A DNA stretch of 63,306 nucleotides, filler included, from Basidiobolus ranarum (GCA_040143965.1; 31 parts of 31 records of this genome joined end to end with filler, not necessarily neighbours in it); one strand, 5' to 3'. Positions 2,860 to 62,460 are shown, counted from the first letter of the whole stretch. The notes: generated by a model from the sequence alone, not told the origin. Numbers and translations are program-made.

Positions 2860-3336
2860 CATATCAATGCATAGAGGATTACAAATATTTGTACTTTGAT
2901 TGTAATCTCCTGAAGTGCAGCTTTTCAACCATGCAAGAATGATGAGATTTGAGTAATTAATGGTGGAGCTGCAACCATTTCTAAATTGCCCCCACTGAAA
3001 AAGAAACACTAGCATATATATGGAACAAAGGAGTTTAGGACCTCAAGATGTTTACATATTTTGTGATAACTCTGAACCAATCAACTGATTCCCCTCAAAA
3101 TTAGCACAAAGCTGCAGCAGTACATATGCTGATGTGCTCAAAGCGTTAAAGCCAAAGCTGTGATAATAGTAATCTTATTGGCATTTATCCTAAGTCCTCT
3201 ACTCACAGCACATATACAGAGTCACCAATTGAAAGTACCTAATCTTATCTATCTTTTCTATAAGCAACCCCTCCCCCTAGTGAAGAAGCTTCTAGCCTTA
3301 CCAGTAACCATTATGCATCACATCCTTTATTCTTTA
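2860..3336. repeat. Unclassified interspersed repeat
   Basis: Reverse-complement homology to about 33745-34200; CpG-poor; no recognisable domain. Confidence 0.55.
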
Positions 3337-3857
3337 CTCTAGCAGAAATTTAAGGATTGTAATTGTAGGAAAACCATCACAATTTTAATCCATTTGGGAT
3401 TGACTGTTTACTTACTGTCATAAAATGATCAAGTTAGATTTGATTTTAATCAATTTTTTCAGTTTCAAGAGTGGAATTTCAAGATCTTGCAAAATAGTTG
3501 TACATGATTGGCTACAGTCTCAGAGAACTATGGATCAACATAAGTGCAAAAAACATAACTCAAATTTTACACAATTACCACTTGAATTCTAATTTGTCAC
3601 CTTTGAAATCCCTGCTGTCTTCAATATATTCTCCTGAATATTTTTATAGAGTTCTTCATACCCAAGGTTTAGCTCATACCCAACATGAGCTTGTATCAAT
3701 ATCTCCATTAAAGCCCACCATTGTATTAATGTTACTGAATCAACATTCTTACAGCTATCTGGTGGATACCCTGCAATATTGTGCCACTCTGTATTAAGTT
3801 CTTCCCAGATATCTGCATAGTCAACACCAGACTGAATGTCAAGTTAAATGTTCTTCT
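3337..3857 (-). mobile_element. CACTA-like element terminus B with 3' end of an accessory ORF
   Basis: Homologous to 21095-21600 and 30917-31385; degenerate TIR CTCTAGCAGAAAT; minus frame LDIQSGVDYADIWEELNTEWHNIAGYPP...KVTN*. Confidence 0.7.
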
Positions 3858-4009
3858 TGTTGAAAGTCTGGTGACTTGTGGTACAAGCAGTAATTCCCAG
3901 AGGAAAATATGGAGTATGGTGACTGCATCTGAACACAAAGTCTAAGGCCAATCAGTTGCTTGTATAGCTGAAATGCCAAAGTACCATACATTGACAGACT
4001 AGGTTAAGG
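3858..4009 (+). mobile_element. 5' part of the tRNA-bearing TRIM LTR, inserted in the CACTA ORF (cut by contig end)
   Basis: Starts TGTTGAAAGTCTGGTGAC and closely matches the reverse complement of 42583-42736. Confidence 0.85.
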
Positions 4010-20510: not shown

Positions 20511-21094
20511 AAAGACTGCAGGGGCATTGGTAAGTCCAAATGGCAGGACATTGTATTCAAAGTGTCCATAGACAGTTTGAAAGGCAGTTTTCCACTAGCC
20601 TGTTGGTTAGATTCTTACAAGATTGTAAGCACCCCTTGAATCAATCCTTGTAAATACCTTTGCTGAAGCAAGCTGATGCAAGAGTGAGTTGATTAATGGC
20701 AAAGGGTACCAATTTTTGACTGTGATGCTATTTATGCCTCAATAATCAACACAGAGATGGAGGGATCCATCCTTTTTCTTAACAAATGAGATTGGAAAGC
20801 CTGCTGGGGACTTTGGATGTTGGATAAATCCTTTCACCAGATTTTCTGCAATGTACTCTTTCAGAATGTTGAGTTCTGACTGAGTCAGTTGATAGATAGG
20901 CCTAAAAGGTGTTTTTTTACCTTCTTGTAGCTCTGTAGAACAATCATATGGGTGAAGAGCCAGGAGTATATCAGATTTCTTCTTGTCAAAAACATCAGCA
21001 AAGGCCAAGTATTTGGGTGGGAGCTTATGCACCATAGGTTTTGTTAGTTTCAGCTTTTTAGCAGCACTGTCCATGTATATTGGCTTCATATATA
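20511..21094 (-). pseudogene. Ty3/gypsy RT N-terminal half
   Basis: FADVFDK, KGFIQHPKSPAG..FVKKKDGSLHLCVDY, YGHFEYNVLPFGLTNAPAVF. Confidence 0.92.
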
Positions 21095-22458
21095 CCCTAA
21101 CGGAAATTTGAGGATTGTTATTGTAGGAAAACCATAACAGTTTTAATCTATTTGCAATTGACCATTTACTTAGTATCATAAAATTATTCAATTTTATCAG
21201 TTTCAGGAGTGAAATTTCAAGATCTCACAAAATAGTTGCATATGATTGGCTACAATCTCAGAGAACTATGGATAAACACATTTGCAAAAAATGTAACTCA
21301 AATTTTTCACAATTACCACTTGAATGCTAATTTGTCACCTTCAAAATCCCTAGTCTCTTTGATATATTCTCCTGAATATGTTTATAGAGTTCTTCATACC
21401 CAAGGTTTAGCTCATAACCAACACAAGTTTGTCTCAATATCTCCATCTAAGCCCACCATTGTATTAATGTTGCTGAATCAACATGCTTCAAGCTATCTGG
21501 CATATACCCTGTGATATTGTGCTACACTGTATTAAGTTCTGCCCAGATATCTGCACAGTAAACACCAGGCTGAATGTCAAGTTGCATGTTCTTCTTCTGA
21601 AGCCACTTTCTGCATACTACGCCATGTGAAATAAGTCAAGAGCATTCAGGATAACACCTGGTTTTTGGTTTTTCCACAATTGGCTCAAATCCAGGTGATT
21701 TTGGGCAAGATTCTGCAAAGTTTCCAAAATGTTAAACCACTCATCATCAGAGCAAGTGATGGCAGCTCTGATATTCAGAGTCTTTTGGTTTGCTGGTTTT
21801 CCTATGAGATTTCTACTTTTGTGTGCCCAAGTAATTTGGGTTGTTGTTTATGCTTAATGGTCCAACACATATTCTGCTCTGCTAGATTGTCACAGTAACA
21901 TTCATATATATGGTGTGGGATTGATTGAAATCCCATATGGCATAGACAGAGGGAGCAGCATGTTGCTGTAGCTCAAGCACAGCATTTTGAAGGTCTTGTA
22001 TCATTATTGAGTGTCTCTCTAACTGTTGACTAGTTGCTTCCAAATGCTGCATTAATTGCAATGTTGCGGCATTATTGCTTTTCATGGCCTGTATAGCAAC
22101 TTCATAGTTTTTACTTATGGGTGCATACAAATCATTACAGTATTCTGCTTGCAATTCCCTTATTGCAATAATTCTATCCAAACTTTTTACAGAGGGTTGC
22201 TCAATAGTGGGCAAAGTAGCCATTTTAGAAGTTGATGGTCTTGACCATGTTTTGGTTGAACTTTGCTCAACTATTTACTTACCACATAATTGGGGGATTA
22301 CAATCTCTTCTCTTGCACTATTGCTGGAAAGGAACACATCTGGTAAGTTGATTAATGCTTCATCATTACTTGAGTTAGTTTCCAGCATGTTAATGCCTTC
22401 CAAAGTGGATAGTGGATTGCTAGACTGCTCATCAATTAAGTCCTCTGTTCTTGCTGGT
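21095..22458 (-). mobile_element. CACTA-like terminus B (TIR CCCTAACGGAAAT) and internally deleted ORF2
   Basis: Terminus B and ORF2 lie in one contig with the same polarity. Confidence 0.8.
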
Positions 22459-22769: not shown

Positions 22770-24505
22770 CTAATTATTTGACTCCGTTGCTTGGTCCAGA
22801 TGCCTTTTAACTTCATCGTATCTATCTTGATCTTCTAAAGACTCATAAACCTGTGCTAATGTACTATAGGTACTCTCGTTAGGCACAACCTTGCGCTCTA
22901 ACATTTCTTTATAAATCTGGTCAACCAGCTCCGGGTTCCTCTGCATTCTACCGGCACTCGCGATGACCAAATTATAGTGATATGCCTCCGGATGTGGTAT
23001 AGAATTTAGAACTTCTCGGGATCTAGCAAAATCGTACGGCTCTAAGAAAGAATATGCCTGTATGAGCAGCTTATAAGTATATCCGTTTGGTATAACCTTG
23101 GCCTTCAGAAGATCTTGATAACACTGAGCAACCTTGGTTTGGTCTTTTTGATTCATATGGTAAGTCATCAGGGTGTTGAAGGGAATTGGACTTAGCTTGC
23201 AATTCTTGTCACCAAGCATTTCTACATAATATTGTTGTGCTAAGGTGGAATTGTTTATGCTCAGTGATTTGTTGATCAAGGTGTTGTACGTTAACTCTGT
23301 AGGTTGGATTTGATAATGCTTCATTTCCAAGTATATGTCCGCTACCAAAGAAAGATCCGCCTTGTATGCGATCTTACTCCACAAAGCTCTATAAAAGTCG
23401 TGTGTAAGACGAAGTCCACGCATCTTCAACTGCTCGTAGGCATCCAATGCTATCTTTGGGGCGTCCGCGTTGTGCAACAGGAAAATATACTGCGCACATA
23501 CATTGGCGCTAGGAAATTCACCCATCTTAATGATAGCCTCGTAGTACTCTTGAGCCTTGGGTAGATTCTTACGAGTAGCATACGCATACAACATAGAGTT
23601 GGTAGGGAAGAGTCTGGCTTTACTGCGCTCCTGCGCATCCTTAATCCTCTGACACGTCCTGTCAGATAATTTGAGAATCTTCTCTGCATCCTCCAACCTG
23701 TTTTCGATTCCAAGTCGCTCAATCAACTCGGCAAATGCTTGAGGTGTCAATTGAATCTCTGTCTCGATGGCCTTTTTAACTAAGGATTCGGCAATTGGCA
23801 GGCCTTTAGATTCACCACACTTCTCGACAATATCGGATGATATTTGCAAAGATACTTCCACTTTCTTCAACGCGTGTAACACCTTCTCAGCGATTGAACT
23901 ATGCTGAGCAGACAGTAACTCTTGCTTCCATAGCGTTTTGGCACCACTGGACTTTATGCCGAACAGTGCATCGCCAATGCTTTCATACAAGCTGGTGTCA
24001 ATACTATCTATTTGCTTTGAATTTTGACTCGCGAGTGCTTCGATTTCTTTCAAAGATTCAGGATCTCCATCGCTAGCAATGATGAACGATGCAGCTATAT
24101 AGCCGTAAACATCAGGACTGACTTGGATATCGGAGGTTTGTCTGTAAGAATCCACAACCATTGAAGAGATATTTTCATTTGGACGCACGTCATATTTTAA
24201 CAGGGTTGTAATTGCACTCAAAACAAAGTTCGAGTCCCCTTTTTGTGTTCGAAATACAAACCCTGCAAATTCTTGTGCCTCTCTGGGAGACCTACATTCT
24301 TTGCACAGCATTTGGATTAACATCTCAAAAGCCTCCACGCTTTTTGGTCGATCTCCAAGTTCTGCGAATCTCTCCATACTTCTCTCACAAAATTCCAATT
24401 TTGGCTTGAATCCTAGATCTCTCATCTCTTGAAGGACTTGGATCCAGGGTTCGATGTCTCCGTTTTTCAATGATAGTTTAGCGAAGCTCTCCAGCACTGA
24501 GTATC
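22770..24505 (-). CDS. Pentatricopeptide-repeat protein, C-terminal ~575 aa (probably mitochondrial RNA factor)
   Basis: Long open frame with ~35-aa PPR motifs (PTELTYNTLIN, PNGYTYKLLIQAY, PNESTYSTL); 5' end truncated; CpG retained. Confidence 0.92.
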
Positions 24506-30916: not shown

Positions 30917-31385
30917 GGAAGAACTTAATACAGAGAGGCACAAGATCACAGGTTATCTGCCAGATAGCTGGAAGAATGTTGATTCAGCAACATTAATACA
31001 ATGGTGTGCTTTGATGGAGATATTGATACAAACTTGTGTTGGGTATGAGCCAAACCTTGGGTATGAAGAACTCTATAAAAATATTCAAGAGAATTTATCA
31101 AAGAGACTAGGGATTTTGAAAGTGACAAATTAGCATTCAAGTGGTAATTGTGTAAAATTTGAGTTACATTTTTTGCACATGTGTTGATCTATAGTTCTCT
31201 GAGATTGTAGCCAATCATGTGCAACTATTTTGCAAGATCTTGAAATTTCTCTCCTGAAACTGAAAAAATGGATTAAAATCAAATCTAACTTGACAATTTT
31301 ATGATGGTAAGTAAACAGTCAATCCCAAATGGATTAAAATTGTGATGGTTTTCCTACATTAACAATCCTCAAATTTCTGTTAGGG
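30917..31385 (+). mobile_element. CACTA-like accessory ORF end and terminus B (TIR 31373-31385)
   Basis: Ends ATTTCTGTTAGGG and abuts gypsy LTR-B. Confidence 0.8.
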
Positions 31386-32788
31386 TCTGATTAATGCCAG
31401 TTATCCATAAAGATTCTTGCCCAAGTATCATCCTTGTCCAGTCTTGTCTTCTCTTGTCTTGTGATCAACACCCAAGTACTCTCCTGCCTTCTAGCCTCTT
31501 GTCATTGTTTTCAGTCCCTGTCCAGTTCCTTATTGTGATAGTCAGAACCCTCCGATTATGTCCTTGGGATGTTCCCACTTCTCTGATCCTTCTTCTTGCT
31601 GGAGATTACTGCTCGGAGATCCTGAAGTCAGAAAATTGCTTCCTTTTTAGAACAAGCTGAGAATCCCTCCCTTGCCTACAAGGAATACTTGGTGGACCTT
31701 TGGCAGCAATGTTTTTGGAAAAACACTCCCTTTATGCTTAATGTTGATTCAGGTCTCATTGCAGTTATTTCCATTGTTGACAAACCATCTTTACCTTGAT
31801 TACCCCCTCCCACTCCACTTAATAGTGTCTTAGACTCTACCAACTTAACTTTCCTACTTTGCAACATTCATACCAATACTCCAGAACTTTACATCTTAAT
31901 TAAGAAACTACCAAAATAGGTATGGCTTCTTTGTTTTGTTCGAAATAAAGATTTTGCCTGTTAATGATTGTCTCCCCCCTAACCCAAGTCTACTCATGAT
32001 AAAATTACAATATTTGAAAGCTTTTAGAGTCTCAGGGAGGACATCTTCACTTTAGTTTCTCAGAGACTTGTAAATACATGAATTAGTAATAAATAAAAAA
32101 TATTTAATATCTGAGAAATTTCTCATAATTCATAAAAATTATAGAAGCTAAAAACAGCTATGTCATAATGTTGGAAATAGCTCAGAGATCTGACCTTTAG
32201 AAATTTTGGGCAAGCCCAATTCTTTCCATATACTAGTAACTTGAATATATTGTGACAGAAAGGTGTACATGGGGGATTGCATCCCCCAGACCCCCTCTTT
32301 TCATCCTTACCCTTACCAGAACATCTCTACCCTAACTGCACATATGATATGGCCATTAGGGCCATTATTGGTGGTGATGACGGTTCCTTTGAAGCAAAGG
32401 CCAGGAGTGTTAAAATCATACTTTCCTAGTTAGAGCTCACATGCTCCACTGTGCTTCAAATAGTGAGAAGAAACAGAAATGCGTGCATCAGTTATAATGT
32501 TTTACTAATTCTAGGCAGTTCAAAATATGAAGATTTTTCGAAGAGGTTGTTTGTGATGTCAAAATTATCGAGAATTTATGTAATGAATTGTTTCAAAAAA
32601 AGGAATGGTAATAATGTTGAAGGTTTATTCTGTCTCTTAAGTTTATTTTGGCCCATGTAAAGTCAAAAACTACTGAGGTTTTGGATAGNNNNNNNNNNNN
32701 NNNNNNNNNNNNNNNNNNNNNNNNNNNNNNNNTTAATTAATTAANNNNNNNNNNNNNNNNNNNNNNNNNNNNNNNNNNNNNNNNNNNN

Positions 32789-40967: not shown

Positions 40968-41219
40968 TATCGCGTAGAAGAATTTGTAAATATGAACCAG
41001 ATCAAAGACTTGCCCGAACTTCGGGTTGCCGATCCGGAGGACGCCATGTGCTCCGTATGCCTTGAGGAATATAACGATGGAGAGCTGGTTCGTAAACTAC
41101 GTTGCAATCATCATTTCCATCAGCACTGCTTGGATGAGTGGTTGTTAATCAACAAGTATTGTCCATTGTGCAAAGCCAATGCATGTCCAACTACCGATGA
41201 CAATCAGGAAAATGCTTGA
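40968..41219 (+). CDS. RING-H2 E3 ubiquitin ligase, C-terminal part
   Basis: CSVCLEEY..GE.VRKLRCNHHFHQHCLDEWL....CPLCK. Confidence 0.93.
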   Translation, partial: YRVEEFVNMNQIKDLPELRVADPEDAMCSVCLEEYNDGELVRKLRCNHHFHQHCLDEWLLINKYCPLCKANACPTTDDNQENA

Positions 41220-41703
41220 CCTAGTCTCGAATGAAACATGCGAATGATGGGAGTTTTGTCAGGTGGAATTTGCTCATTAGATTGCTCATCTGGCTGTTAA
41301 CCTTGTCGAGTCACGTGTCAAACCATTTCGCCGCTCCTCGGCTAGAATATTCTTTTTGGATCCTTTTGAGTCCTTGTTTCACGATCACGTTAAATAAAAT
41401 GGGATACCTTCTGTTTATGCTTAATTCCTTTTTCGGTAAGAAGATTGACAAATTCCAGTGCCAAGACACAACTGGGCTTTCTAAATATATTCAAGCACAG
41501 TTAGTGATGTCTGGGGTATTTGATAGAGTGTCAATGGCCGTCTATTTAAGGTGCAGGGTGGTTGGTAGAGTCAGACCGGCTCTATACATGATTTCTTAGA
41601 TCCGAATTCATAGGATAGACATCTGCTACCAAACCAAAGTGCTTTCATTTCAATTAAGCCAAGTAAAATATGGGCTAGAATATTCTAATGAAGAGGTGCA
41701 TGC

Positions 41704-41995
41704 TGTTGAAGTATTTGGGAGCCTGTTGGAAGTAGTTTGGAGAACTAGAGAAATTAGTGGGTTTCATTTGTTGATTTATAGAGTAGAAACTTAACATTAA
41801 TAATTTTGTCAAGATGTAAATATGCCAACATGTAGAATGTGTCAAAGAATGTCCCAGAAACATGTATGCAAAGTTTGGGACATGTAGCTCAAGTTGGAAA
41901 AATCTATATATCAGAGAACTTATAAGTTGGTAAGAATATTCTAAGTAAATTCCAATTGAGAATAATAGATAATATCTTAGTGAAATATAAGATAG
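41704..41995 (-). mobile_element. LTR-C copy, 5'-truncated, inverted relative to 42020-42366
   Basis: Starts TGTTGAAGTATTTGGGAG on the plus strand. Confidence 0.8.
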
Positions 41996-42019
41996 CCATG
42001 AGAACTTCAAAGTATATTC

Positions 42020-42378
42020 TGTTGAACTTAGCTTTGCCTAAACACCTATATATTCATATACAGCTTAGTACTTAGTTATCTTTTATTTCACTAAGATATT
42101 TTCCATTATTTGCATAAGGAATTTACTTAGAATATTGACACCAACTTAGAAGTTCTCAGATATATAGATTTATCAAACTTGTGCTCAAAGCCTCAAACTT
42201 TGCACAAATGTTTCTGAGACCTTCCTTAACATATTCTACATTTTAGATTGCTTACATCTTGACAAAACTATAAACATCAACTTTCTACTCAATAAATCAA
42301 CAAGTGAAAACCACCAATTTCTCTAATTCTCCAAACCACTTCCAACAGGCTCCCAAATACTTAACAGGTTATGAGCCT
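42020..42378 (+). mobile_element. Copia 5' LTR family C (42020-42366) with PBS GGTTATGAGCC
   Basis: TG...CA ends, followed directly by the copia-type PBS complementary to the tRNAiMet anticodon arm. Confidence 0.88.
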
Positions 42379-42480
42379 TGAGCTTGCACTCTCTGTATTG
42401 TCTACTTCTCAAATTTATGGAATTTTTCCCTCTTCTGAAAAATTGGGCAGAACCTATTAAAATTATTTAGGGAGAAATAT

Positions 42481-42553
42481 TGGTCTGGCCAGGATTTGCA
42501 CCTGGGACCTCCTTCACAATAGCAAGGTGCTCTAACCACTGAGCTACCAGTCC
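42481..42553 (-). ncRNA. tRNA-like cassette in the TRIM 3' LTR
   Basis: GGACTGG-TAGCTCAGTGGTTAGAGC...CCAGG-TGCAAAT-CCTGG-CCAGACCA; B box mutated. Confidence 0.75.
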
Positions 42554-42813
42554 TTGTATATTATGACTATATTGCTAGGGAACCTTAATCTAGTCAGTCA
42601 ATGTATGGTACTTTGGCATTTCAGCTATACAAGCAACTGATTGGCCTTAGACTTTGTGTTCAGATGTGGTCACCATACTCCATATTTTCCTCTTTGGGAT
42701 TTATTGCTTGTACCACAAGTCACCAGACTTTCAACATTCCCCCTCAAGCAGGATTTCCAGATTTAGCACTAACTGGGGCTCATAACCTATTGAAATTATT
42801 TAGGGAGAAATAT

Positions 42814-42886
42814 TGGTCTGGCCAGGATTTGAACCTGGGGCCTCCTTCACTCTAGCAAAGTGCTCTAACCACTGAGCTACCAGTCC
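42814..42886 (-). ncRNA. tRNA-like cassette in the TRIM 5' LTR
   Basis: 73 nt; A box TAGCTCAGTGG, B box GGTTCAAATCC; D and T stems pair; anticodon arm degenerate. Confidence 0.8.
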
Positions 42887-43011
42887 TTGTATGCTATGCC
42901 TATATTGCTAGNNNNNNNNNNNNNNNNNNNNNNNNNNNNNNNNNNNNNNNNNNNNTTAATTAATTAANNNNNNNNNNNNNNNNNNNNNNNNNNNNNNNNN
43001 NNNNNNNNNNN

Positions 43012-44954
43012 ATAGAAGAGTTCTATTTGCAGTGGATTAGTATGCCAAGATCAGAATCATGACAGTATCCCCTTCTTTAGTGATGGCTTCCAGACATCAT
43101 AGGGCCAGGTTTTCCTGGGTAGGCTTCATGAAACTCCTGGCAAAGTTTCTTGGAATTGGAAAGATTTGTTGCTGGCTCCCATGATTGATTATTTGTTGAG
43201 TATTCCTTCCAGTCCACAAAATATTGCAATTTATGTTTATAAATTCTGGAATCCAAAATTTTGCTAACTTCATATTCAGGGTGTTCTTCCACATGGATTG
43301 CTGGGGGTGTATAAATGGATTGGCCCTGGAAGGTGTTTCTGGTGTATGGCTCTAAGAGAGACATATGGAATACATTGTGGACTTTGAAATGGGATAGTAG
43401 TTTAAGGCAGAAGGCTATTGAATTGATTTGCTTAATAATCTTAAAAGGCCCTAGTCTTTAATGATCAAGTTTATCACAAGGTCAAGTGGTTTTGATATTT
43501 TTCCGGCAGGGCAAGGTAGATTGGAAGTGGGTGACTTGTAAAACAAGGATGGATCCATAATTTGTAAAGAAGGGAGTTTGTTTTGTTGAGGTATGATAAG
43601 AGTTGTTGTAAGTAAATTCAGCAAGAGGCAAGAGTTGTGTCCAATTATCCTGATTATAGTTGATAGTGCATCGCAAATATTGTTCCAAAACTTGATTGAC
43701 TCTTTCTGTTTGGCCATCAGATTGGGGGTGGAAGGCAGTGGAGAGATTGGCAGAGATACCCAAGGTATGGAGGAGACTTTTCCAGAATTTGGAAGCAAAC
43801 TGAGGTCCTCAGTCAGAGATGATAGTTTCAGGGAGGCCATGTAGGTGGAAGATGTTTTGAGTTACCAATTCTGCTGTTTGTTTTGCATCAATTGACTTGT
43901 TGCAGGGCACAAAGTGGGCCATCTTTGTTAGATGGTCAACAATTACCAGAATTGAATCATATTTGGCAGACATGGGTAAATCAGTTATGAAATCCAGGGA
44001 TATGGATTTCCACTGCTGATCAGGAATTGGAAGTGGCTGTAGGAGGCCATAGGGCTGATGTCTTGGAGTCTTCACTTGAGCACAAGTATCACAGGTGGAA
44101 ACATAAGTCTTAACAAATGCAAACATTTTGGGCCACCAATAATCCCTGGATGCCAACATATATGATTTGGCAACACCAAAGTGTCCTGCTAGTGGTGAGT
44201 CATGTCTTTCCTGCATGATTTTGAGTCTGGAAGTGTGGTCTGGAATGTAAAGGCGCTTCTTATAAAACAAGAGATCATTGATGATAGAGAAATGGCAGTA
44301 CAAGTTCAAGCTTGAGAGGTCTTTGGGTGTTCCTGGGCTTTGTTGATTGATATTACCAATTGGTCTTCTGATTGAAGTTTGTGGATGTCTTCATGGAATG
44401 TGCTTGAACTAGGCAGAGAAAGAGCAGCTGCACTAATTTGAATTTGGTAGGGCTTCAGTAAGGAAGTATTTTGTTGGCTCAAGGCCTCATCCCCTTCTTT
44501 AGGCTGATACTCTGCTCTACGTGATAAGGCATTGGGTTTTCCTTGCTGGCTACCTGGTTGATATGTAATCACAAAATCAAAACTGGCACAAAATAATGAC
44601 CATCTTGCTTGAAGATGGTTGAGAACTTTAGTTGTACTAAAATACTGGAGATTCTTGTGATCACAATAAACTGTGATTTTGTGATTTGCTCCATTCAAGT
44701 ATTGTTGCCATTGTTCAAATGCAGCAATAATTGCTAATAGTTCCTTGTCATAGATGTCATAGTTGATTTCTGCAGCAGAGAACTTTCTTGAGTAAAAGGC
44801 AACAGGGTGCAGTAAGTTGTCATCAACAAACTGTGAAAGTACTGCTCCTAGAGCAAAGTCAGCTGCATCAGCTTTAACAATAAATGTTATATCTAGCTTG
44901 GGATGTGCCAGGATTGGGGCTGAGGTAAAAGCACTCTTTAAAGTTACAAATGCT
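43012..44954 (-). mobile_element. Gypsy chromovirus RNase H-integrase-chromodomain, PPT, LTR start (43064)
   Basis: DHKNLQYF, HDSPLAGHFG..YWWP..CDTC, FHPQSDGQTERVNQ, EYEVSKILDSR..QYFVDWK..SWEP; stops and frameshifts. Confidence 0.95.
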
Positions 44955-48209: not shown

Positions 48210-49037
48210 AGACTTGTTCCATTATATTGAGCCAGATCAGGCCAGCTAAAAAGTGTGCTGGCACAAATTGGCATGATTGGGCCCTATCTGGCACAATGAT
48301 ATTTACCATTTTGGAAACAGTTCATTTTATTTATGTGGTATATTTAAGAAAAGTACTTTTAGATATTATTGCACATTCAAAAGACAATGAAAGCTTTATT
48401 CATATTGTCTTAAGTCTAGAGCTCTCAATGGAGATCTTTGAGTATGAATGTATTGATAACTAATCAAGATTTTGACTACTTTGGCTAACTTTGATTGAGG
48501 CCCACAAAATGATTTTCCTCTATACCTTCCTGCTACAATGCTATATCTCTTTAAGAAACCAAAGCTATGTTCTACTCTAGCCCTAAAATAGGAAAAAAAA
48601 AAGTCATTTTAAAGCTTTTGCCTCTCTGCGAGTATCCTTCCTCTGGCCCTCTTGTTAGCAGTGACACATCCTAGCCTTCTGCATTCTTCCCCAACATATG
48701 CCAAATCAGCCATAGTCTTTGCATATCTTATAAATGGTGCATGCCTCTCAACCCAAAGCCTTTTGTCATGATGTCTTCCTGGATATGGCTGACTGAACCA
48801 AATGATGTTTCCTTCCAAATCTGTGAAAGCCTGGAACTTTACACAGTGGGCTTTGTACTTGCCAGAATAGAATAGCTTTTGGTTGCTTTTGGGCCTGTTA
48901 ATTCTGACTGGAAATGTGTCAAGAATACTTCTGATATGAACTCTATTGGGAAATACTCCAGGAAATGGAAGGAAATTAGAGTCTCTAAATCTTTTGTCCC
49001 AGGCATCTTCAACATCATTCATCACTGAAGCTAGATA
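48210..49037 (-). mobile_element. PHIS (Harbinger-like) DDE transposase pseudogene 48396-49037 running to TIR at 48210
   Basis: LDTFPVRINRP, YSGKYKAHCVKFQ, PGRHHD, MADLAYVG, then after a stop/frameshift RARVEHSFGFLK; TIR AGACTTGTTCCAT after ATT. Confidence 0.88.
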
Positions 49038-49137: not shown

Positions 49138-49365
49138 AAACTTGAAGAAACTATCAACAGTACTATCAGCTGGTTGGATGCAAATCAAGAAGCTTCTAAG
49201 GAAGAGTACGAAGAGAAGCAAAAAGATTTGGAAGGTGTTGCCAATCCTATTATGACCAAGATGTACCAGGCTACTGGTGGGGCCCCTGGTGGCTTCCCAG
49301 GAGCTGCTCCAGGAGGGTTCCCAGGTAGTGACAACAGTGAACCAACTGTTGAAGAATTGGATTAA
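49138..49365 (+). CDS. Cytosolic Hsp70 (Ssa-type) C-terminus
   Basis: [43 protein letters not shown] repeats, terminal PTVEELD. Confidence 0.95.
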
Positions 49366-49776
49366 GCTTAGATTGAAATTTGAGTTTTGTTCCGCATGTA
49401 TTTTACTATGTACAATATTTACAAAAGAATACCCGATTCTAAATAATACCAAGCATATCTTGGATATCAATAATAAATATTACGTTTCAACACAATCAGA
49501 AAACTTATCTTAAAGTGACGGTTGATTTATATAAAAGAGACTACTTTTGATTGAGAAAGAACAATCACATTTGAATGAGAGAATAAACTTTAGTTGACTT
49601 TAGAATGCATTGACGAAAATATTGCCAAATTATTATGAATCATTATCCGATCAGAGAATGAAAGGTTTACTGCTTGAATAGCTCACCCTGTCCAGGAGTT
49701 CCTGTCGTATTTTTCCTAGCACACCGATATTGATTATTATTTTGAATGTATTGATATTAAAAATCAGATATGACGA

Positions 49777-49852
49777 GAGCTCAACCGGGAATTGAACCCG
49801 GGACCTCCCTCCATGACCCGAACGAGGAATCATACGACTAGACCATTGAGCC
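49777..49852 (-). tRNA. tRNA-Pro(CGG)-like gene with atypical anticodon arm
   Basis: GGCTCAA-TGGTCTAGTCGTATGAT...TTCGGGT...CCGGGTTCAATTCCCGG-TTGAGCTC; T5 terminator about 14 nt downstream. Confidence 0.75.
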
Positions 49853-57479: not shown

Positions 57480-59231
57480 AATAGGATAGGTCTTACTTCT
57501 CACTACTACCAGCTCCTGGGGGGAGCGATAAGAGGGCCTTTGTTACCCTTGGATCAAAAGGAAGGTGTAAGGACTTTGATGCTATCTAAAGTCGAGGGAA
57601 TCCATATACCCTTAAATGATAAGGAATGGCGTGTTGATCTCATTAATGAGCCGGTTTCTATGGCCGAAGGTATATGTTTACCTTTACTTGGAGTGGAGTA
57701 TCTCCGCGAGAAGGAAAAAAAGTTCAAGGGGGGGGGAAGAGAACATTGAGTGTGATATTCCCGAATTCATTCAACAGTATACTGGAATTTAGTATACCGA
57801 AAGGAGTAGGATCGAAAGATATAAGCAACAATGAGTACATGTCGGTCACTCCTCACCACAAATTCTCTAAATTGGATTACTACAAATTGCTCTTCCATTT
57901 GACGCCAAATAAGTTGGACCTACTGGCTCCTTCCAAACATTATCGTCAATTTAAAAATTTCCTGGGCTAATTCGAAAGTCTATGGGAAAAACTGAATCGG
58001 GTTGGTTGGTCCAAAGCAGGTCAAAAATTGATCAGAGCGAGCCATGCTTATCTTTGAGGACAACAGTTCAATTGGGGTAGTCTATTGTCAGCAATGAAAT
58101 TAGCTTGGCCATTACTCAAGTTAATATAACCGAACAGGACCTTCTAGAAGCCAAGTTCACTCATGCCCCAAAGGATCGACAGGAATGCGCTCTGGTGAAG
58201 TTGTCTCAAGATATACTCCTTCCTGTAGAACGTTGGGGTGATAGTACATCGGGAAAATTGATGAGCCGATTTCAAGAGTCTAGTTTAAAGTGACTCTTCT
58301 TGGGCCTGCCCAATTATAAAGCCGATTTTTATCACCCAGAGAGTGTTCAAGCTGCAAATAATGCTGGCCATTTGATCAGTCCCTATGATTCTTATAATAC
58401 TGCCGTTCCAGAAGGAATTGAACTATCAGTTCGTACGGCTCATCTCGGCCAAGAAGTATTTGAAAAGTGTGGAGTAATGTTGGAGAATGGAAAACACTTA
58501 CCAGGCTTCCAAGGAAAAGGTATCCACACAAACACTCCTTGCGTACGCAAAATATTTCGGGAATGTGTGAAAGAGGTTCAAGAGAAAACACGTAATGCTT
58601 ATAACAGTTGGTTCCTGGATGTTGATGTCTCTGGTATGGTTCACGAGGACTATGACCCTGCCCGTACTAGCACTGAAGCTCAAGATGTAAGAGACCGGAA
58701 CTTACGAATGAGGTGGGTAGCCATCAACTCGCGACCAAGACTTTTAGCTGGTTCAGAGAATGGCTATTCTCATATGAACACGGAAATAGCATTCGTGCAT
58801 GGGATGCAAAATACTAAGGTTGGGTGGGGTGGCCCACAAATGCACAAGAACAAAAGCTCCCCATTTTTTTCGGTGGTTATTTCCCTGATGATCGACCAGC
58901 CACGTATTTCCAACCTGCTTTGATACAATCAAAATACAAACAGCTGTATTATACTCCATCGAAGAGGTTGCCACCATTTCAAGCGGTATTACACGACAAT
59001 GGGATTACTACAAATCACTGGCTGCTTGACAACCTAAAACTCCAGGATATCTAGTGCGATGGAGAGTTACTGTAAATTTGTGCAATGTACCTCCATTAAT
59101 CCATTAGAATTTGGCTACTGCTGATACTAAAATTCAATATATACCCCGTATCAACGCTTTCACGACGCTTTCTTCCGCCCTGTTCCAGTCTTTGATAGAC
59201 TTCGAATAGTTATTAAACGATCATATAGTAC
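57480..59231 (+). pseudogene. Bacterial-type glycoside hydrolase (GH129/GHL, GH101-related), disrupted
   Basis: PYDSYNTA, GFQGKG, NSWFLDVD.SG...EDY, GSENG, AFVHGM, RLP.FQAVLHD..ITTNHW..DNLK; no introns seen; several stops and frameshifts. Family recognised from memory; 5' boundary approximate. Confidence 0.7.
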
Positions 59232-61369: not shown

Positions 61370-61676
61370 TTAGAGGAATTGGTGGTTTTCACTTATTGAT
61401 TTATTGAGTAGAAAGTTGACATTTATGGTTTTGTCAAGATGTAAACAAACTAACATGTAGAATATGTTAAGGAAGGTCCCTGGAACATGTGTGCAAAGTT
61501 TGGGGCTTCTAGCACAAGTTTGAAAAATCTATATATCTGAGAACTTCTAAGTTGGTAAAAATATTCTAAGTAAATTCCAATTGATAATAATTGATAATAT
61601 CTTAGTGAATTATAAGATAACTAAGTACTAAGCTATATATGACTATATAGGAGTTTAGGCAATGCTAATTTCAACA
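61370..61676 (-). mobile_element. LTR-C copy
   Basis: Ends CTAATTTCAACA on the plus strand. Confidence 0.85.
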
Positions 61677-61771: not shown

Positions 61772-62460
61772 AGAATATACTGCTGCCTGAGAAGCAACAA
61801 AAGAAGTGACATGGTTACAAATACTCTTAACATATTTAGGTTATTCTCAAAACTCACCAATTACAATATTTCAAGATAATCAAAGTTGTGTCAAATTAGC
61901 TTAGAATTCCACAGTTTGTAATAGATTCAAACACATTGAAATTAGATATCACTTCATTGAAGCAACTATAGAGAAACAGTTTATAGATTTAACTTATTTT
62001 TCTACAGAAGACAAGATTACTGATATATTAACTAAACCATTAACTAGACAGAAATTTCAGAAATTTAAGCCTTTATTGGGATTAGTTTATATGACTATTT
62101 AGCTAAGGGAGAGTGTCAAAATTAGCACTGCCTAAATACTTATAAAGTCATATATAGCTTAGTACTTAGTGATCTTCCATTTCACTAGGCTGTTACCCAT
62201 GATTCTCAATTGGAATTTACTTGGTATATTTTTACCAACTTATTAGTTCTATGATACATTGATTATTTAGGCTAGTACTAGAAGCCCCAACTTTGCACAC
62301 ATGTTTCTGGGCCCTTCCTTGACATATTCTACATGTTAGCTTACTTACATCTTAACTAACCTATAAATGTAAACTTGCCACTAAATAAGTCAGTAATTGA
62401 AAACCACCAATTTCTCTGATTCTCCAAACAACTTCCAACAGGCTCCCAAGCACTTTAACA
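61772..62460 (+). mobile_element. Copia RNase H end, PPT (62105-62113) and 3' LTR-C (62114-62460)
   Basis: KHIEIRYHFI, DILTKPL; AAGGGAGAG then TGTCAAAATTAGC...TTTAACA. Confidence 0.88.

Follow-up and report, generated by a model that had tools for sequence, protein, structure and literature searches.

Organization of the locus

The window analyzed here is a 63,306-base stretch of DNA with a GC content of 36%, in which 31 contigs of 1,937-1,955 nt each, ordered by falling length, are joined by linkers of the form N44-TTAATTAATTAA-N44. The contigs, each of about 1.9 kb, are independent of each other and unrelated. Contig 21 (40968-42911) carries a miniature LTR element (TRIM), which runs into the contig end at 42911. 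Read on the plus strand, the contig begins with the 3' end of a RING-H2 gene (40968-41219), followed on the minus strand by a 5'-truncated copy of an LTR termed LTR-C (41704-41994). A full copy of this copia-type LTR lies on the plus strand (42020-42366); it starts with TGTTGAA (TGTTGAAC), ends with CTTAACA and continues into GGTTATGAGCCTTG. The PBS of the LTR-C element, GGTTATGAGCC, is located directly after the LTR (plus strand, 42367-42377).

The TRIM is oriented opposite to LTR-C and sits in the LTR-C leader. With 88 nt of leader in between, it lies downstream of the LTR-C PBS at practically the distance (about 90 nt) that an earlier note on this DNA had given. A gypsy/chromodomain pol on the minus strand (43080-43400) appears to adjoin the TRIM on its other side. 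This adjacency was rejected as a product of contig joining; the pol belongs to the next contig and is therefore unrelated to the TRIM.

Anatomy of the miniature LTR element

All parts of the TRIM are read on the minus strand. The 3' LTR is complete, comprising 282 nt (TGTTGAAAG...TTTTAATA; 42736->42455). Of the 5' LTR, the last 124 nt are present (LTR positions 159-282; 42911->42788), ending in ...TTTCAATA. As contig 21 breaks off at 42911, the two LTRs overlap over positions 159-282 alone. The earlier note had described a pair of 282-nt LTRs; one full LTR of this length does exist, whereas the second is visible over 124 nt and the pair is an extrapolation. The first 158 nt of the 5' LTR, together with the flank before them, would lie beyond the contig end, and the predicted full length of the TRIM is 615 bp (282 + 51 + 282). 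The direct repeat (42448-42578 vs 42781-42911) matches at 92% with a BLAST E value of 1.7e-48. When the 5' LTR was compared with the 3' LTR, 115/124 positions were identical (92.7%), the nine differences being five transitions and four transversions (K2P 0.077).

Between the LTRs lies an internal region of 51 nt without ORF (42787->42737), which consists of a PBS, a 29-nt spacer and a PPT, as the earlier note had read it on this strand. The PBS GGTTATGAGCCCC (42787->42775) begins directly after the 5' LTR end and belongs to the type that can pair with the anticodon stem-loop of tRNA-iMet. The PPT GAGGGGGAA (42745->42737) adjoins the 3' LTR start TGTTGAAAG. We take the PBS to pair with the host tRNA-iMet, an assumption in line with the text of Figure 3 in Kojima 2024; a host tRNA-iMet was not found in the window.

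The sequence GGTTCTG after the 3' LTR resembles the PBS start GGTTATG. A tandem-array remnant was considered for this resemblance and rejected, as the core aligns with the 95-nt flank no better than shuffled sequences do: the local alignment reached a score of 12.0 compared with a shuffle mean of 12.4, and 64% of 2000 shuffles attained this score.

A tRNA-like cassette in both LTRs

Each LTR contains a tRNA-like cassette of 73 nt, located at LTR positions 184-256 in both LTRs and leaving 26 nt to the LTR end (minus strand; 5' copy, 42886->42814; 3' copy, 42553->42481). The tRNA model of Rfam (RF00005), for which the gathering score is 29 bits, scored 55.4 bits on the 5' copy and 55.7 bits on the 3' copy. 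The minimum-energy fold of both cassettes is a cloverleaf, with unremarkable energy z-scores of -0.47 and -0.32. ARAGORN called the 5' copy as Ser-aga and the 3' copy as Asn-att, corresponding to the anticodons AGA and ATT. The tRNA shape claimed earlier for the two cassettes, as well as their distance from the LTR end, is therefore confirmed by Rfam scores of about 55 bits and by the cloverleaf folds.

The A box (TAGCTCAGTGG) is intact in both cassette copies. An intact B box (GGTTCAAATC) is found in the 5' copy only; the 3' copy reads GGTGCAAATC (GGTGC). Both boxes had been described in this way before. The earlier description of the anticodon arm as decayed was overstated: 4/5 pairs of the anticodon stem are kept, together with a 7-nt loop. 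The differences between the two LTRs fall at 5/73 sites within the cassette compared with 4/51 outside, and two of those within the cassette hit the anticodon. With LTRs that have diverged by 7%, the TRIM copy in contig 21 is old, and because of this divergence and the broken B box of the 3' LTR it is probably inactive. AT-rich, TATA-like stretches (AATATAG, ATAATATAC) are located 10-30 nt upstream of the cassette.

As the cassette occupies the same position in both LTRs, it already belonged to the LTR when reverse transcription last took place, and a SINE insertion after integration is thereby ruled out. A free-standing tRNA-derived SINE was likewise rejected, given that the cassette recurs at the same LTR position and is tailless. 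The cassettes were also rejected as functional tRNA genes, for which consistent anticodon and isotype, intact stems and a nearby terminator would be expected. The acceptor stem is interrupted by an A.A mismatch and the anticodon stem by a G.G mismatch, the AGA anticodon of the 5' cassette is combined with a 5-nt extra arm and not with the long extra arm of tRNA-Ser, and no T4 is present in the 18 nt after the cassette. Self-priming by the cassette was discarded as well; the PBS region is complementary to either cassette over 5 nt at most. No further diverged cassettes were detected in the window, where an Rfam search at E <= 1 added only a host tRNA-Pro(CGG) (49777-49852; 36.9 bits), which has a T5 run 14 nt downstream.

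The minus strand between 42911 and 42360 contains just two T runs of at least four. A T4 run (minus strand, 42462-42459) occupies 3' LTR positions 275-278, at which the 5' LTR has TTTC, and a T5 run (minus strand, 42438-42442) lies in the flank, 13-17 nt past the 3' LTR, as a possible Pol III terminator. The stretch from the 5' cassette to 3' LTR position 275 is devoid of T runs of at least four. Consequently, the earlier claim that no T4 occurs between the 5' cassette and the end of the 3' LTR holds until LTR position 275 and fails at positions 275-278. Yeast Pol III needs runs of at least five T to stop, so the T4 at the end of the 3' LTR may serve as a weak Pol III stop.

A second LTR piece in the window

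A second piece of the TRIM LTR (LTR positions 1-154) was found on the plus strand of contig 2 (3858-4009). It starts exactly at TGTTGAAAG, is cut by the contig end and is identical to the 3' LTR at 146/154 positions. Two sites hence define the 5' terminus of the LTR: 42736, where it follows the PPT, and 3858. No PPT precedes the LTR start at 3858; the left flank is another repeat, with CTTCT at the junction. In contig 11, a paralog of this flanking repeat (84% identical) is unbroken past the 3858 junction, and its reading frame runs across. The junction looks like an insertion at a discrete LTR terminus. Such an insertion predicts a 5-bp duplication of CTTCT, the left flank alone being visible there. 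The piece stops at LTR position 154, before the cassette, and is therefore silent on the cassette in other copies.

No TRIM LTR copies beyond these two loci were detected among the 31 contigs (blastn, word size 7, E <= 1e-3). Metagenome scans with a 22-mer from U3 and a 23-mer from the cassette flank gave 0 matches each. The earlier note had concluded from the insertion at 3858 that the element belongs to a family. The LTR piece and its exact terminus are real, but the family is read from two broken pieces with nearly coincident breakpoints, contig 2 stopping at LTR position 154 and contig 21 starting at 159. The coincidence could reflect an assembler stop at the branch point of a multi-copy repeat, or the pieces could be two halves of one 5' LTR. 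We favor two separate insertions, because the flanks would misfit one simple insertion (another repeat as opposed to the LTR-C leader; CTTCT as opposed to GGTTC).

LTR-C, the resident copia element

Copies of LTR-C are present in at least eight contigs. In contig 31, the C-terminus of a copia pol (61791-62102), a stop codon and the PPT AAGGGAGAG are directly followed by an LTR-C variant (plus strand, 62114-62460), which is about 80% identical to the LTR-C of contig 21. A Pfam search with this pol C-terminus returned no family, and the protein atlas gave weak leads, all below 0.9. An ORF in contig 28 (56241-56582) shares 79.6% nucleotide identity with the pol C-terminal stretch of contig 31 and matches 151 proteins (E <= 1e-5). 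Among the 120 of these 151 matches that were listed, most carry RVT_2, many also have rve and gag, and several are named Ty1/copia. Because the LTR-C variant follows a copia pol C-terminus and a PPT, and because the paralogous ORF matches RVT_2/rve proteins, LTR-C is identified as a Ty1/copia LTR. This arrangement in contig 31 also upholds the link to a resident copia that had been drawn before.

An exact search of the window for the 11-mer GGTTATGAGCC gave just two matches, one after LTR-C and one in the TRIM. With one mismatch allowed, five matches were obtained in the window compared with 0.71 expected by chance. Other PBS-like motifs, with one mismatch each and located at 21409, 26890 and 31041, were dismissed; the motif at 21409 lies in a coding-like part of an unrelated repeat.

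The TRIM and LTR-C have in common the TGTTGAA start, an end in ...AACA/...AATA and the 11-nt PBS, in agreement with the half-tRNAiMet PBS and the start that the earlier note had listed as shared. In blastn comparisons within the window, the LTR of the TRIM and LTR-C displayed no likeness beyond the termini, and the PBS is the sole part that the TRIM core shares with the LTR-C leader. No coding fragment attached to a TRIM LTR was found in the window. From the shared termini and PBS, LTR-C is the likely copia partner of the TRIM.

Comparison with Helenus and other known elements

Helenus elements are TRIMs with tRNA-derived sequence in their LTRs (Kojima 2024, Biology 13:119, PMC10886601). The name, already mentioned in the earlier note as one in use for tRNA-bearing TRIMs, fits the element by this definition and by the architecture of the fungal members. 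The fungal Helenus comprise 113 families in Pucciniales and a few in Agaricomycetes, from three Agaricomycetes hosts, and have 5-bp TSDs (PMC10886601). Their dominant PBS is of the tRNA-iMet anticodon-loop type, a mode of priming for which Ty5 and copia are cited, and Copia is the proposed mobilizer (PMC10886601). Helenus elements range from 311 to 1263 bp in length, and their predicted tRNAs mostly disagree in isotype (PMC10886601). Their use of Pol III is without experimental proof (PMC10886601); among TRIMp3, transcription by Pol III has been shown for Cassandra only. In rusts, Helenus cassettes were found to inflate and distort tRNA gene counts (PMC10886601).

Over its visible sequence, the element in contig 21 is a direct LTR pair around a short non-coding core, within a length of less than about 1 kb. 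The PBS lies next to the 5' LTR and the PPT next to the 3' LTR, and the LTR contains tRNA-derived sequence with a box A of the form TRGCY...YGG and, in the 5' copy, the box B GGTTC. The predicted length of 615 bp falls within the Helenus range of 311-1263 bp. The isotype inconsistency of Helenus is seen here too, the two cassette copies reading AGA and ATT. As for LTR-1_PTrit and Copia-9_PGr, which share the PBS and not the LTR body (PMC10886601), the likely Copia partner of the TRIM has the PBS in common with it, but not the LTR body.

The TRIM was compared with Helenus consensus sequences visually and by motif look-ups, in a file whose FASTA line wraps may hide matches. In the consensus sequences compared (e.g. 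LTR-1_PGr, Helenus-4_PGr/PSt, Helenus-4 and -16_CroRib), LTRs likewise surround a short non-coding core with PBS and PPT, and the tRNA-like part is placed towards the 3' end of the LTR (PMC10886601). In the TRIM as in these fungal Helenus, the tRNA-like part with A and B boxes is about 25 nt away from the LTR end, and the PBS is of the tRNA-iMet anticodon-loop type (ggttatgagccc...). The PPT ending in gggggaa and the LTR termini tgttgaa...ttcaata are common to both. The consensus of LTR-1_PGr has an LTR of the form tgttgaag...ttcaata, a core extending from ggttatgagccca to gggggaa and a tRNA-like part that stops about 24 nt short of the LTR end (PMC10886601). In the Kojima 2024 supplement, an 18-nt string from the T-arm of the 5' cassette occurs in two consensus LTRs, those of Helenus-4_CroRib and Helenus-16_CroRib. 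A generic 16-mer from the D-arm has 14 occurrences in the same supplement, in elements from fungi, bivalves and wasps. For two motifs specific to the family and for the 13-nt PBS the count there was 0, line wraps in the FASTA possibly hiding matches.

Differences from the reported Helenus concern size, sequence details and host. Judged by the rows of Table S1 shown (Puccinia to Cronartium), the 282-nt LTR is at the top of the fungal range of 106-284 nt, and by these rows the core of 51 nt compares with 75-354 nt in fungal Helenus. The extra arm of the TRIM cassette is short, whereas the look-alikes from Cronartium and Puccinia, in the consensus sequences seen, have a long insert. The PBS of the TRIM has four C's. 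While the reported fungal Helenus hosts are Pucciniales and three Agaricomycetes, the TRIM resides in Basidiobolus. The Helenus screen took Repbase as its starting point and was then widened solely to relatives of positive genomes (PMC10886601). Hence, early-diverging fungi were not surveyed, and absence of Helenus from them is not a negative result. No other report of TRIMp3 or Helenus beyond Kojima 2024 turned up in the part of the literature covered, in which a sugar beet paper merely cites Helenus. Among the papers listed on Basidiobolus retrotransposons, the titles and opening lines of abstracts contain nothing on TRIMs.

Other known systems resemble the element in part. Plant Cassandra, with 5S rRNA in its LTRs, and Ajax of nemerteans are also miniature LTR elements in which the LTRs contain part of a small-RNA gene together with an internal Pol III promoter, the principle behind the proposed TRIMp3 class (PMC10886601). 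In contrast to these, the small RNA of the TRIM is tRNA-like and not 5S, and the host kingdom differs; a search for 5S rRNA in the window yielded no match at E <= 1. The TRIM resembles SINE2 elements in its tRNA-like head, which has A and B boxes and probably does not work as a tRNA. Unlike them, its cassette is inside an LTR and is duplicated with it, a PBS and a PPT are present, an A-rich or LINE-like tail is lacking, and the TRIM would depend on an LTR element instead of a LINE. The tRNA-iMet half-primed Ty5/copia elements resemble the TRIM in the type of PBS, and TGTTG...CA/TA termini are shared by the TRIM and LTR-C. The TRIM differs from such elements in having no gag-pol, and its LTR body is unrelated to that of LTR-C.

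A possible life cycle and competing explanations

We consider it probable that the element is a degenerate Helenus-type TRIM ('TRIMp3'), a gene-less LTR retrotransposon which would have used Pol III for its transcription and a copia element for its mobilization. The A and B boxes of the 5' LTR cassette would recruit Pol III, with transcription starting near the first cassette base (LTR position 184). The transcript would then leave the 5' LTR through its last 26 nt and continue across PBS, spacer, PPT and 3' LTR. Read-through to the 3' LTR appears possible in this copy, since no T run of at least four intervenes. Termination at the T4 near the LTR end or at the T5 just past it would give an RNA of about 430-450 nt, which would be terminally redundant with an R region of about 95-99 nt. 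This RNA might be packaged in particles of a resident Ty1/copia, either of the LTR-C family or of a relative. A tRNA-iMet fragment would act as primer for reverse transcription at the PBS of the anticodon-loop type, and the PPT would prime the plus strand. Finally, the copia integrase, recognizing the TGTTGAA...CAATA ends, would insert the DNA copy.

Several observations count against this explanation. The window shows a single copy with a core, and the contig end truncates the 5' LTR of this copy. The second LTR piece ends before the cassette and breaks at most 5 nt from the break of the first piece. TTTT and TTTC are one base apart, and with an ancestral TTTT, transcription by Pol III might already end within the 5' LTR. 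The TRIM LTR resembles LTR-C at the termini only, and the core has the PBS alone in common with the LTR-C leader. Lastly, the two family-specific motifs and the 13-nt PBS are without a match in the Kojima 2024 consensus file.

The same TRIM might instead have been transcribed by Pol II from the 183 nt of the LTR that lie upstream of the cassette. The cassette would then be a passenger, as the fossil of an old SINE or tRNA insertion, or would have another role, in RNA processing, in packaging or as a chromatin boundary. The TATA-like stretches 10-30 nt upstream of the cassette would suit such a promoter and are usable by either polymerase, and for the published Helenus, too, Pol III use is experimentally unproven (Kojima 2024, PMC10886601). 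Decay of the cassette also keeps pace with that of the remaining LTR (5/73 vs 4/51), but equal decay is expected of any dead copy and is therefore uninformative on the active ancestor. Retention of the A box in both copies and of the B box in one, together with the absence of terminator-length T runs across the would-be transcript, argues for Pol III, as does the finding that boxes A and B are conserved in 113 fungal families (Kojima 2024, PMC10886601). We regard transcription by Pol II as unlikely. It is quite unlikely, in our view, that the element arose by a one-off internal deletion of a longer LTR element, autonomous or LARD-like, which had a tRNA-like LTR and founded no propagating family. 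Such a deletion would agree with the one core-bearing copy visible in the window and with a core that, at 51 nt, falls below the 75-354 nt of the fungal Helenus cores in the Table S1 rows shown. Yet the core retains exactly a PBS and a PPT with a 29-nt spacer, in the manner of a TRIM, and no coding fragment in the window is joined to a TRIM LTR. Both visible pieces lie at contig breaks, as is typical of multi-copy repeats, and a long autonomous element, it has been argued, would be unlikely to rely on an LTR driven by Pol III (Kojima 2024, PMC10886601).

Far-fetched by comparison is an assembly artefact, in the form of a repeat mis-join in a 1.9-kb contig, or a local duplication that contains real tRNA genes. 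The contig is indeed short and ends within a repeat, and ARAGORN and Rfam both call the cassettes tRNAs. The two LTR copies, however, differ at nine sites and are therefore distinct LTR sequences rather than a collapsed read pile, and the PBS and PPT are positioned exactly at the LTR junctions. Real tRNA genes would be difficult to reconcile with two different anticodons (AGA, ATT), with the A.A and G.G stem mismatches and with AGA in the company of a short extra arm. Moreover, no T run follows closely after the cassette, unlike in the host tRNA-Pro with its T5 run 14 nt downstream.

Host and implications

The host of the TRIM is an early-diverging fungus. A rust, suspected at first from the Helenus literature, and a plant, suggested by a PPR ORF of 577 aa, were both discarded as hosts in view of best matches to Basidiobolus. 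Judged from its sequence features, the element is a real, albeit truncated, Helenus-type TRIM beside its likely copia partner. It is doubtful, though conceivable, that it represents the first Helenus lineage outside the Dikarya and perhaps shares ancestry with the rust families. Common ancestry is suggested by the same termini TGTTGAA...TTCAATA, the iMet PBS and the GGGGGAA PPT, as well as by the position of the cassette about 25 nt from the LTR end and by a T-arm that shares 18 identical nt with two Cronartium families. If true, Pol III-driven parasitism of Copia would date back to the separation of early-diverging fungi from Dikarya, or it would have moved horizontally between fungal phyla. 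Helenus was defined only in 2024, and a member in Basidiobolus would widen its range to early-diverging fungi. Such a wider range bears on a repeated as opposed to an ancient origin of Pol III-type LTR parasites. The TRIM and the LTR-C copia would constitute a candidate parasite-host pair for studying the trans-mobilization of an LTR with a Pol III promoter. As the cassettes pass tRNA detectors at 55 bits, they can inflate and distort tRNA gene counts, and, if the reading is true, such elements may inflate tRNA predictions in Basidiobolus-like genomes.

Two protein-coding regions elsewhere in the window match the genus Basidiobolus, for which NCBI gives the phylum Basidiobolomycota. A PPR ORF of 577 aa (minus strand, 22770-24503) has its best named match in Basidiobolus meristosporus, at 71% amino-acid identity, and a GH129-like ORF (58294-58923) matches B. 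meristosporus at 71% and B. ranarum at 70% amino-acid identity.

Window composition and truncated LTR pieces

The window consists of 31 contigs of ~1.94 kb each, ordered by decreasing size and separated by N44-TTAATTAATTAA-N44 linkers (e.g., 42912-43011). Any feature or neighbourhood spanning a linker is artificial. Two contigs end within the 282-nt LTR of the miniature element (TRIM; 42455-42911, minus strand), and both contig-end pieces, at 4009 and at 42911, belong to one LTR family. Counted along this LTR, contig 2 stops at position 154 (window 4009), and the TRIM LTR of contig 21 begins at position 159 (window 42911). The two breaks may be explained either by repeat-induced assembly breakage at a branch point or by the pieces having formed a single physical 5' LTR, although in the latter case the flanks of both pieces are unlike those of a simple single insertion. 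The contig 2 piece (3858-4009, plus strand) sits in a repeat carrying a degenerate minus-strand coding frame (3335-3857), a repeat also represented at 21093-21596 and 30917-31386. Diverged relatives of the host repeat were observed in contigs 6 and 18.

Sequences surrounding the TRIM

Directly past the 3' LTR of the TRIM, the 7 nt at 42448-42454 (minus strand) read GGTTCTG, identical at six of seven positions to the start of the primer-binding site, GGTTATG. A run of purines, AGAAGAGGGAAAAA, lies 13 nt beyond this motif. Overall, alignment of the 3' flank with the 51-nt core was no better than chance. The resemblance to the primer-binding site may be a coincidence, reflect a target preference or represent the trace of a tandem unit.

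On the same contig, two copies of the resident copia-type LTR-C (41704-41994 and 42020-42366) lie head to head, 25 nt apart and ~79-84% complementary, the minus-oriented copy (41704-41994) being without its first ~57 nt. This arrangement probably arose from nested or recombined copia insertions. A comparable inverted pair was found at 61372-61671 and 62119-62417.

Other mobile elements and host genes

Contig 22 is part of a Ty3/gypsy element (43012-44954, minus strand), in which Pfam detects RT-RNase H as well as the zinc-binding domain of an integrase. Judged by eye, the 3' end of its pol (about 43080-43290) may encode a chromodomain; past the stop codon, a purine tract is present along with what may be the start of an LTR. 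At 48609-49037 (minus strand) lies a transposase fragment of the Harbinger/PIF type (DDE_Tnp_4).

A tRNA-Pro(CGG) at 49777-49852 (minus strand) is likely a genuine host gene. It scored 36.9 bits, above the Rfam gathering score, yet went undetected under default filters. The gene measures 76-79 nt, possibly contains a short intron and is followed 14 nt downstream by a T5 run. Its contig is non-repetitive, and at the other end (about 49138-49400, opposite strand) the sequence looks, by eye, like the 3' terminus of an HSP70-type gene. At 58294-58923 (plus strand), an ORF for a GH129-like glycosyl hydrolase shares 70-71% identity with Basidiobolus proteins. A PPR-repeat ORF at 22770-24503 (minus strand) runs without interruption for 577+ aa and shows 71% identity to a protein of Basidiobolus meristosporus; this ORF looks unusually plant-like for a contig of fungal origin.
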